Positions 15,201-16,652 of a stretch of 18,020 nucleotides of DNA are shown here, in pieces. The notes beneath the pieces are model-generated. The model was not told the origin of the DNA. It did not search any database and worked only from the letters and a program-made list of their open reading frames with translations. The position numbers were made by a program, and so were the translations under genes. Origin of the DNA: a virus (lineage: Duplodnaviria > Heunggongvirae > Uroviricota > Caudoviricetes); the IMG/VR virus record IMGVR_UViG_2657245664_000010; one strand, written 5' to 3'. Positions within the stretch are counted from its first letter, which is position 1. Each line of letters opens with the position of its first letter.

Positions 15201-15522
15201 GGCCTGTCAGTTTCTTAAGATATCCAGACCAACCGCCACCAACTGGATACGAACAGGCCGCCTACAGGCAACACGTAAAGATCCAACCAAGCCAAAATCT
15301 CCTTACCTCACAACACGGCAAGCCTGCATTGCGGCGCTTCAGTCTCCGCTGCATACTGTCCAGGTGAACGCGGGTGATGGCATAACAGAGGAAAGAAAAT
15401 GTCACTCTTCCGCAGAAGTGAAATATGGTACGCCAGTTTCACATTGCCGAACGGTAAAAGATTTAAACAGTCTCTTGGAACAAAGGACAAAAGGCAGGCG
15501 ACAGAGCTCCATGACAAGCTAA
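15172..15522 (+). CDS. xis: Excisionase (Xis), overlapping the start of int
   Basis: [33 protein letters not shown] is a helix-turn-helix excisionase-like N-terminus. AGAGG ribosome-binding site. It overlaps int by about 40 codons, so the C-terminal extension is unusually long and may be a frameshifted or degenerate tail. Confidence 0.55.
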
Positions 15523-16562
15523 AGGCTGAAGCATGGCGGGTCAGCAAACTTGGTGAAATACCTGATATGACGTTTGAGGAAGCGTGTGTCAGGTGGCTCG
15601 AAGAGAAAGCACATAAGAAATCACTGGACGATGACAAAAGCCGGATCGGATTCTGGCTTCAACATTTCGCAGGGATGCAACTAAGAGACATCACTGAATC
15701 AAAAATTTATTCAGCAATGCAGAAAATGACGAACCGGCGTCATGAGGAAAACTGGAAACTCAGGGCAGAAGCATGCAGAAAAAAAGGGAAACCTGTTCCA
15801 GAATACACGCCAAAACCAGCGTCCGTTGCAACGAAGGCTACGCATCTTTCATTTATAAAGGCCCTACTAAGAGCCGCAGAGCGTGAATGGAAAATGCTGG
15901 ATAAGGCACCAATTATTAAAGTGCCTCAACCAAAGAATAAACGGATCCGCTGGCTGGAGCCCCATGAAGCACAAAGGCTGATTGATGAATGTCCGGAGCC
16001 ATTAAAGTCTGTTGTTGAATTTGCACTGGCAACAGGCTTAAGACGCTCGAACATCATCAACCTTGAATGGCAACAAATAGATATGCAGCGCCGGGTGGCA
16101 TGGATAAACCCGGAAGAGAGTAAATCAAACCGCGCAATTGGCGTTGCGCTGAATGATACTGCATGTCGCGTATTGAAAAAACAAATCGGGAATCATCACC
16201 GTTGGGTATTTGTGTACAAGGAAAGCTGTACCAAACCAGACGGAACGAAAGCGCCAACAGTAAGGAAGATGCGGTATGACGCAAACACAGCCTGGAAAGC
16301 GGCGCTGAGACGGGCTGGTATTGATGATTTCAGATTTCACGACTTGAGACACACCTGGGCAAGTTGGCTGGTTCAAGCCGGAGTCCCGTTGTCAGTGTTA
16401 CAGGAAATGGGAGGCTGGGAGTCTATCGAAATGGTTCGTCGATATGCTCACCTTGCACCTAATCACCTTACCGAACACGCACGGCAAATAGACTCGATCC
16501 TGAACCCATCGGTCCCAAATTTGTCCCAGTCAAAAAATAAGGAAGGTACTAATGATGTGTAA
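15399..16562 (+). CDS. int: Phage integrase (tyrosine recombinase, lambda-family, IntD-like)
   Basis: [41 protein letters not shown]... and the C-terminal catalytic region (...[39 protein letters not shown]). Ends 14 nt from the 3' end of tRNA-Thr. Confidence 0.9.
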
Positions 16563-16576
16563 CTTATTGATTTAAA

Positions 16577-16652
16577 TGGTGCCGATAATAGGAGTCGAAC
16601 CTACGACCTTCGCATTACGAATGCGCTGCTCTACCAACTGAGCTATATCGGC
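16577..16652 (-). tRNA. thrW: tRNA-Thr (anticodon CGU)
   Basis: The reverse complement reads GCCGATATAGCTCAGTTGGTAGAGCAGCGCATTCGTAATGCGAAGGTCGTAGGTTCGACTCCTATTATCGGCACCA. It has a cloverleaf with a TTCGACT T-loop, a CGT anticodon and an encoded CCA, and lies downstream of proA. Confidence 0.9.

Follow-up and report, generated by a model that had tools for sequence, protein, structure and literature searches.

The stretch of DNA analysed here (the window, 18,020 bases) is over its entire length 100% identical to the chromosome of Escherichia coli SCU-118, and carries at its right-hand side an integrase gene, a tRNA gene and a chromosomal flank. The int gene (15399..16562, + strand; open reading frame and translation) encodes a tyrosine integrase of 387 aa that belongs to the thrW-specific P22/SfII type, with a full Pfam Phage_integrase domain (PF00589, residues 184-355, E = 5e-48). 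Its start is overlapped over 124 nt by xis (15172..15522, + strand), encoding a 116-aa excisionase with an HTH domain (Pfam HTH_17, E = 9e-9) that is identical to the SfII reading frame at 111/116 positions and to the P22 reading frame at 104/116. The sole tRNA gene found by ARAGORN within the window is thrW, encoding tRNA-Thr(CGU) (16577..16652, - strand; ARAGORN and RefSeq annotation), and beyond it lies chromosomal proA (16767..18020, - strand; RefSeq annotation of the identical SCU-118 sequence). int and thrW are convergent, with 14 bp separating the stop codon of int from the 3' end of the tRNA gene, in agreement with the preliminary description, which had placed the integrase next to the 3' end of tRNA-Thr(CGU).

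RefSeq places the start of the integrase at 15444, an internal methionine, which gives a protein of 372 aa (WP_224628705.1). The 387-aa form is more likely to be correct, since P22 Int, SfII Int and IntD all show good conservation of the first 15 residues (window 15399-15443). Four motifs are present in the protein, ATGLRR (211), SKSNR (241), HDLRH (314) and RRYAH (347), and the same four were found in five aligned relatives, except for ATGLRK in IntD and PhiR34_1 and for STGLRR and SKSNH in P22; the catalytic residues can probably be assigned from these motifs.

When the window integrase was compared by tblastn with phage genomes, it was found to be 100% identical in amino acid sequence, over all 387 residues, to the Int of Shigella phage SfII (KC736978), and 89.9% identical to P22 Int, which is also 387 aa long. 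Identity to IntD of E. coli K-12, by contrast, is 73% over 382 residues aligned gap-free by BLASTP and 72.4% over the full length (71.9% at the nucleotide level between int and intD), and the window integrase is therefore about as distant from IntD as P22 Int is (71.1%). With domain limits taken from the lambda Int scheme quoted in PMC2629481, the arm-binding domain (residues 1-60) of the window integrase shares 78% of its residues with IntD, 95% with P22 Int and 100% with SfII Int. The corresponding values are 62.5%, 88% and 100% for the core-binding domain (residues 61-180), 82%, 92% and 100% for the catalytic domain (residues 181-360), and 41%, 74% and 100% for the C-terminal tail (residues 361-387). 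The earlier impression that the N-terminus is nearly the same as that of IntD was therefore overstated, its likeness to IntD being due to conservation at the family level and not to identity. At the nucleotide level, the segment comprising xis, int and attP (15172-16622) is 98% identical to SfII. Relatives of IntD of the argU type are PhiR34_1 (99% identity to IntD) and SEN22 (83%); the window integrase, with 72.4% identity to IntD, does not group with them.

These assignments agree with the published integration sites. The site used by phages P22, ST64T and ST104 is thrW, and that of DLP12 and epsilon34 is argU; the integrase of epsilon34 is most closely related to IntD and diverges from the thrW-type integrases by ~30% (PMC2629481). 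Integration at thrW has also been described for the Shigella phages SfI, SfII, SfIV, SfV and SfX, and the 46-bp attP reported for SfIV is identical in SfI and SfV (PMC3851460). In view of its identity to the Int of a thrW-integrating phage, the window integrase would be expected to recombine attP with attB in thrW. The preliminary description, which had seen here a DLP12-type integrase at the wrong tRNA, had allowed that the protein might prove much nearer to thrW-specific integrases than to IntD, and this is what was found. A misplaced DLP12 integrase is ruled out by the direct comparison with K-12 IntD.

The junction between prophage and chromosome on the integrase side is a 46-bp att core (16577..16622, - strand) that corresponds to the 3' part of thrW and reads, in tRNA orientation, ATTCGTAATGCGAAGGTCGTAGGTTCGACTCCTATTATCGGCACCA. 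Homology to SfII ends exactly at 16622. Exact copies of the 46-bp core are present in the attP of SfII, the attP of P22, thrW of K-12 and the far end of K-12 CP4-6, and a core differing from that of P22 and SfII can thus be dismissed. Following the proposal in the preliminary description that the tRNA 3' end be compared with the distal junction, the thrW core was found at both ends of the element: 16,884 bp away from the core beside int, the SCU-118 chromosome carries a second copy without a mismatch (L001, 4594-4639), which falls outside the window, 262-307 bp before its first base. The distal junction has therefore not been lost, and it retains an SfII-type arm, the 125 bp inside the distal core being 95.8% identical to the SfII attP arm (distal core and arm at L001, 4594-4764). 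The 540 bp leading up to the outer boundary of the distal core, core included, are 99.8% identical to the distal junction of CP4-6 in K-12, on the yagP side. Because the cores, arms and flanks match, both junctions fit the Int-mediated insertion of an SfII-type attP into thrW, and the thrW gene is reconstituted by the prophage-borne core. The integrase thus combines the features of the thrW-specific class, namely its catalytic domain, its identity to the SfII and P22 enzymes, an adjacent and repeated thrW core, and an overlapping xis gene.

The junctions of DLP12 are built in the same way, with a core consisting of 47 bp of argU instead of 46 bp of thrW, and both cores span the tRNA from the anticodon loop to its 3' end. 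They share 27/45 positions; the window element has the thrW core and not the 47-bp core of the argU 3' end. The thrW core accompanies the integrases of the window, SfII and P22, and the argU core accompanies IntD and SEN22. For PhiR34_1, whose record stops 17 nt past int and so does not show a core, a match was found to the DLP12 sequence immediately following the argU core. Integrase subtype and tRNA core were paired without exception, in what is a small sample. The K-12 layout given in the preliminary description, with DLP12 and intD at argU and CP4-6 starting inside thrW, was confirmed. In CP4-6, the 46-bp thrW core is found at both ends (L007, 1602-1647; L008, 3710-3755), and the integrase gene intF (1401 nt, about 466 aa) is located at the far end and does not adjoin thrW.

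Some further likenesses were noted around the cores. The arm inside the distal core (L001, 4668-4766) is 90.9% identical to the corresponding part of DLP12 (L002, 22430-22528), although the cores differ, and a motif GACGTGTGAGCGCAG is common to the arms of the thrW element and DLP12 and is also present in the arms of P22, SfII and SEN22. The combination of shared arms and different cores would fit a conserved arm-binding domain and divergent core-binding domains. The attP arms of P22 and of the window element are only 78% identical. The chromosomal bases beyond the distal core (L001, 4576-4593), GTAACTCTTTGATTTTA, resemble the attP spacer on the integrase side, GTAACTTATTGATTTAA, and are present in K-12 too; this likeness may have been left behind by previous integration events at the thrW hotspot.

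The remainder of the element is a mosaic. Between the nin region and xis lie accessory genes of the left arm (13955..15200, + strand; RefSeq), encoding DUF1317, DUF1382, hypothetical, TraR/DksA and DUF4222 (Pfam) proteins, which are colinear with the integrase in a prophage of E. coli MB15; positions 13945-18020 are 98.5% identical to this prophage (L011), and positions 13945-14851 are 96.8% identical to phage ev099. The nin region itself is a remnant (12484..13947, - strand) with a DUF1364 fragment, NinX, NinE, a Dam-type methyltransferase (Dam domain by Pfam) and a NinB fragment. Further to the left are SfII/SfV-like structural remnants (3594..7639, - strand), comprising the tape measure gene (4808-6640; PhageMin_Tail by Pfam) and fragments of the DNA-circularization, tail-assembly, portal and HNH endonuclease genes, with 89-96.6% nucleotide identity to SfII. 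The attP-distal end (1..3616) carries cargo: an IS3-family fragment (1-186), a gene for an AraC-family regulator (228-980, - strand), a gene for a LEM-3-like GIY-YIG protein (1796-2569, + strand) and two unnamed ORFs.

The backbone is SfV-like, with an HK97-type head and a contractile Mu-like tail, as judged from six blocks that are colinear with the MB15 prophage at 95-98.5% identity, and the HNH, tail, xis and int genes of the window element are SfII/SfV-like. With SfII and SfV, and also SfI and SfIV, the element shares the 46-bp core, the P' arm and the thrW site next to proA; its tape-measure, DNA-circularization and HNH genes are 89-97% identical at the nucleotide level to those of SfII. 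It differs from SfII in that most of the genome is deleted and in that the Q/lysis region is of the DLP12 type rather than the SfII type. Another difference concerns the DNA beside attP, where SfII and SfV carry a gtrA/gtrB/gtr(type) cluster for O-antigen modification and the window has instead the IS fragment, the AraC-family regulator and the GIY-YIG gene. The arrangement of the serotype-converting Shigella phages was not found, the window having no match to gtrA, gtrB or gtrII of SfII, and no similarity to SfII was detected in positions 1-3594. P22 shares the integrase type and the identical core, but it is a podovirus and its structural genes are unrelated to those of the window element.

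The likeness to DLP12 is concentrated in a cassette of ~4.5 kb (8110..12573, - strand, except for bor/iss and nmpC on the + strand) that comprises bor/iss, rzpD, rrrD, essD, nmpC, quuD, ylcG and rusA, with Bor and porin domains recognized by Pfam. By blastn, this segment is 97.4-98.8% identical at the nucleotide level to K-12 DLP12 and colinear with it across the site of IS5 in the K-12 nmpC gene. The preliminary description was thus correct in calling the late genes DLP12-like, but its AppY-like protein (228-980) is the AraC-family regulator, only 28% identical to AppY. Outside 8110-12573, blastn of the window against DLP12 gave only a weak match in the integrase: no shared DLP12 gene content was found beyond the Q-lysis cassette, and no other nucleotide similarity to the window was detected in the DLP12 stretch with emrE, ybcK/L/M/N, nohD, appY and ompT. 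The same cassette occurs in many lambdoid phages, including mEp332 (98.7%), 434B, ev243, ev207 and the PhiR series, and phage 434B is documented to have arisen from phage 434 by exchange of its Q-lysis region for the DLP12 counterpart, a ~5.5-kb segment with Q, the lysis genes and the late promoter (PMC9119081).

Within the cassette, only positions ~8950-11998 (rrrD, essD, nmpC, quuD) are DLP12-like and at the same time unlike MB15, and sequence shared with MB15 lies on both sides. Since it is bracketed in this manner, this part is best seen as a cassette swapped in by homologous recombination. Module exchange by recombination, one of the two possibilities raised in the preliminary description, was hence essentially right, with a DLP12-type cassette set in an SfII/SfV-like backbone. 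The other, a divergence in target specificity, holds only in the old sense of the published ~30% split between the two integrase types (PMC2629481), and no new change is needed. The resemblance to DLP12 is accounted for by the presence of a widely exchanged cassette and by IntD, ~72% identical with an argU core, belonging to the same family. The nmpC-type porin gene of the window (10232-11329, + strand) is intact and encodes 365 aa with a full Porin_1 domain, whereas the K-12 DLP12 copy is split by IS5. An Rz1 fragment (7931-8059, - strand), located between the HNH remnant and bor/iss and apart from the complete rzpD lysis genes, appears to be the leftover of another lysis module.

The element has also lost much of its gene content. 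RefSeq flags seven gene fragments within it, and pseudogene flags fall on the nin and structural remnants. Three deletion joints can be placed. At ~13945-13948, the 5' part of ninB, ren, P, O, cII, cro and cI through exo are lost: in 13945-13955 the truncated ninB directly adjoins the DUF1317 gene, and the alignment to ev099 jumps from 7415 to 16172 (L010), so that by this comparison the joint removes about 8.8 kb, with the genes for Red recombination, replication and immunity. In comparison with the MB15 prophage, the terminase genes are lost at a joint at ~7370, and most head and tail genes at another at ~6950. From its sequence, the element is accordingly best described as a defective remnant that keeps int, xis and both att sites.

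Taken together, the window almost certainly contains most of a 16.9-kb defective SfV/SfII-type lambdoid prophage, which would have entered through its own P22-family thrW-specific Int at the normal attB. Int, helped by its arm-binding N-terminal domain, would have carried out recombination between the 46-bp attP core and the same 46 bp in the thrW 3' end, a reaction predicted to rebuild an intact tRNA gene beside int and to leave a second core at the far end. Deletions would then have stripped the element of its head genes, most of its tail genes and the genes for immunity, replication and recombination.

A composite of two tandem prophages at thrW, one having contributed int and the other the late genes, fused by a deletion, was considered. 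The several internal deletion joints would accommodate such a history, the likeness of GTAACTCTTTGATTTTA outside the distal core to the spacer GTAACTTATTGATTTAA hints at repeated use of the site, and CP4-6 of K-12 shows a different element with the same core at its boundaries. However, the element contains only two core copies, both with SfII-type attP arms as inner flanks; its order of int, xis, DUF1317, nin, rusA, ylcG, Q, lysis, iss, HNH, portal and tail genes is fully syntenic with the single prophage of MB15; and the DLP12-like, MB15-unlike part is limited to ~8950-11998 with MB15-shared flanks, as expected for a cassette swap. Such a fusion is therefore a very improbable origin of the element. 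That the integrase belongs to the DLP12 (IntD) lineage and switched only recently from argU to thrW as its target is hardly credible: the two proteins are homologous and align without gaps, both genes overlap xis and abut a tRNA 3' end with cores running from the anticodon loop to that end, and the DLP12 P' arm is close to that at the distal end of the element, but the integrase has the same sequence as SfII Int and shares 90% of its residues with P22 Int, enzymes of two phages published as integrating at thrW, IntD is no closer to it than to P22 Int, and the split between the thrW and argU types, whose cores share so few positions, is old and already published.

An integrase of this kind at thrW in a decayed mosaic prophage, as the SfV/SfII-type element is, is ordinary and already known, and the sharing of cassettes is an ordinary property of lambdoid phages, so that the case has little significance beyond correct annotation. 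What DLP12 and the element have in common, the rusA-ylcG-quuD-nmpC-essD-rrrD-rzpD-bor block, the geometry of int, xis and tRNA and a similar P' arm, illustrates that likeness of the integrase N-terminus and a shared late cassette are poor guides to the identity of a prophage; the integrase subtype, especially its core-binding domain, together with the att core is a reliable marker. IntD at argU and the Int of SfII and P22 at thrW, with conserved arm sites and divergent cores, form a natural example, already in the literature, of divergence in core specificity within one family.

Since the remnant has a full-length Int identical to that of SfII, an intact Xis frame, two cores and SfII-like arms, it might have kept the ability to leave the chromosome and integrate again as a mobile island of 16.9 kb, and might also donate its Q-lysis cassette, although we regard this as rather doubtful. 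If it does, the cargo of the island would be the intact NmpC porin, Bor/Iss, the AraC-family regulator and the GIY-YIG protein.

The arrangement of integrase and thrW is widespread in E. coli. A junction query, for which 80% coverage requires the integrase to be contiguous with thrW and proA, was matched in 1184 of 5426 complete E. coli genomes (~22%), a count that shows the integrase to be common at thrW while leaving room for rare copies elsewhere. The integrase alone was found at >= 80% coverage in 1044 genomes, and the difference between the two counts fits O157:H7-type copies that lack the first 238 nt of int. Only five genomes contain the whole 16.6-kb remnant, which makes this exact decay product rare, while the integrase-thrW arrangement is very common.

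Two relatives at the same site deserve description. A ~41-kb prophage of E. coli MB15 that appears to be intact occupies the yagP'-thrW slot, encodes an Int with the same protein accession (WP_224628705.1) and has the same gene order as the window element, but has a different Q, holin and lysozyme and is without nmpC. The thrW remnant of O157:H7, for which no description was found in a literature search, shares the 3' part of the integrase gene and the AraC/GIY-YIG end (97.5-98.3%), and differs in the middle genes and in an integrase without its N-terminus. Window positions 1-2628 are 97.5% identical to this O157:H7 remnant, and positions 1-1616, with the IS fragment and the AraC gene, are 98.7% identical to phage ev099, where the copy lies beside a different, lambda-length integrase; judged from these alignments, the cargo of positions 1-2628 looks like a segment that is passed between unrelated integration modules and sits next to attP in each. 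Positions 1277-1620, between the AraC and GIY-YIG genes, are 97.4% identical to a place annotated as tRNA-Ser in E. coli NZ_CM132971.1, and may represent another integration-site remnant.
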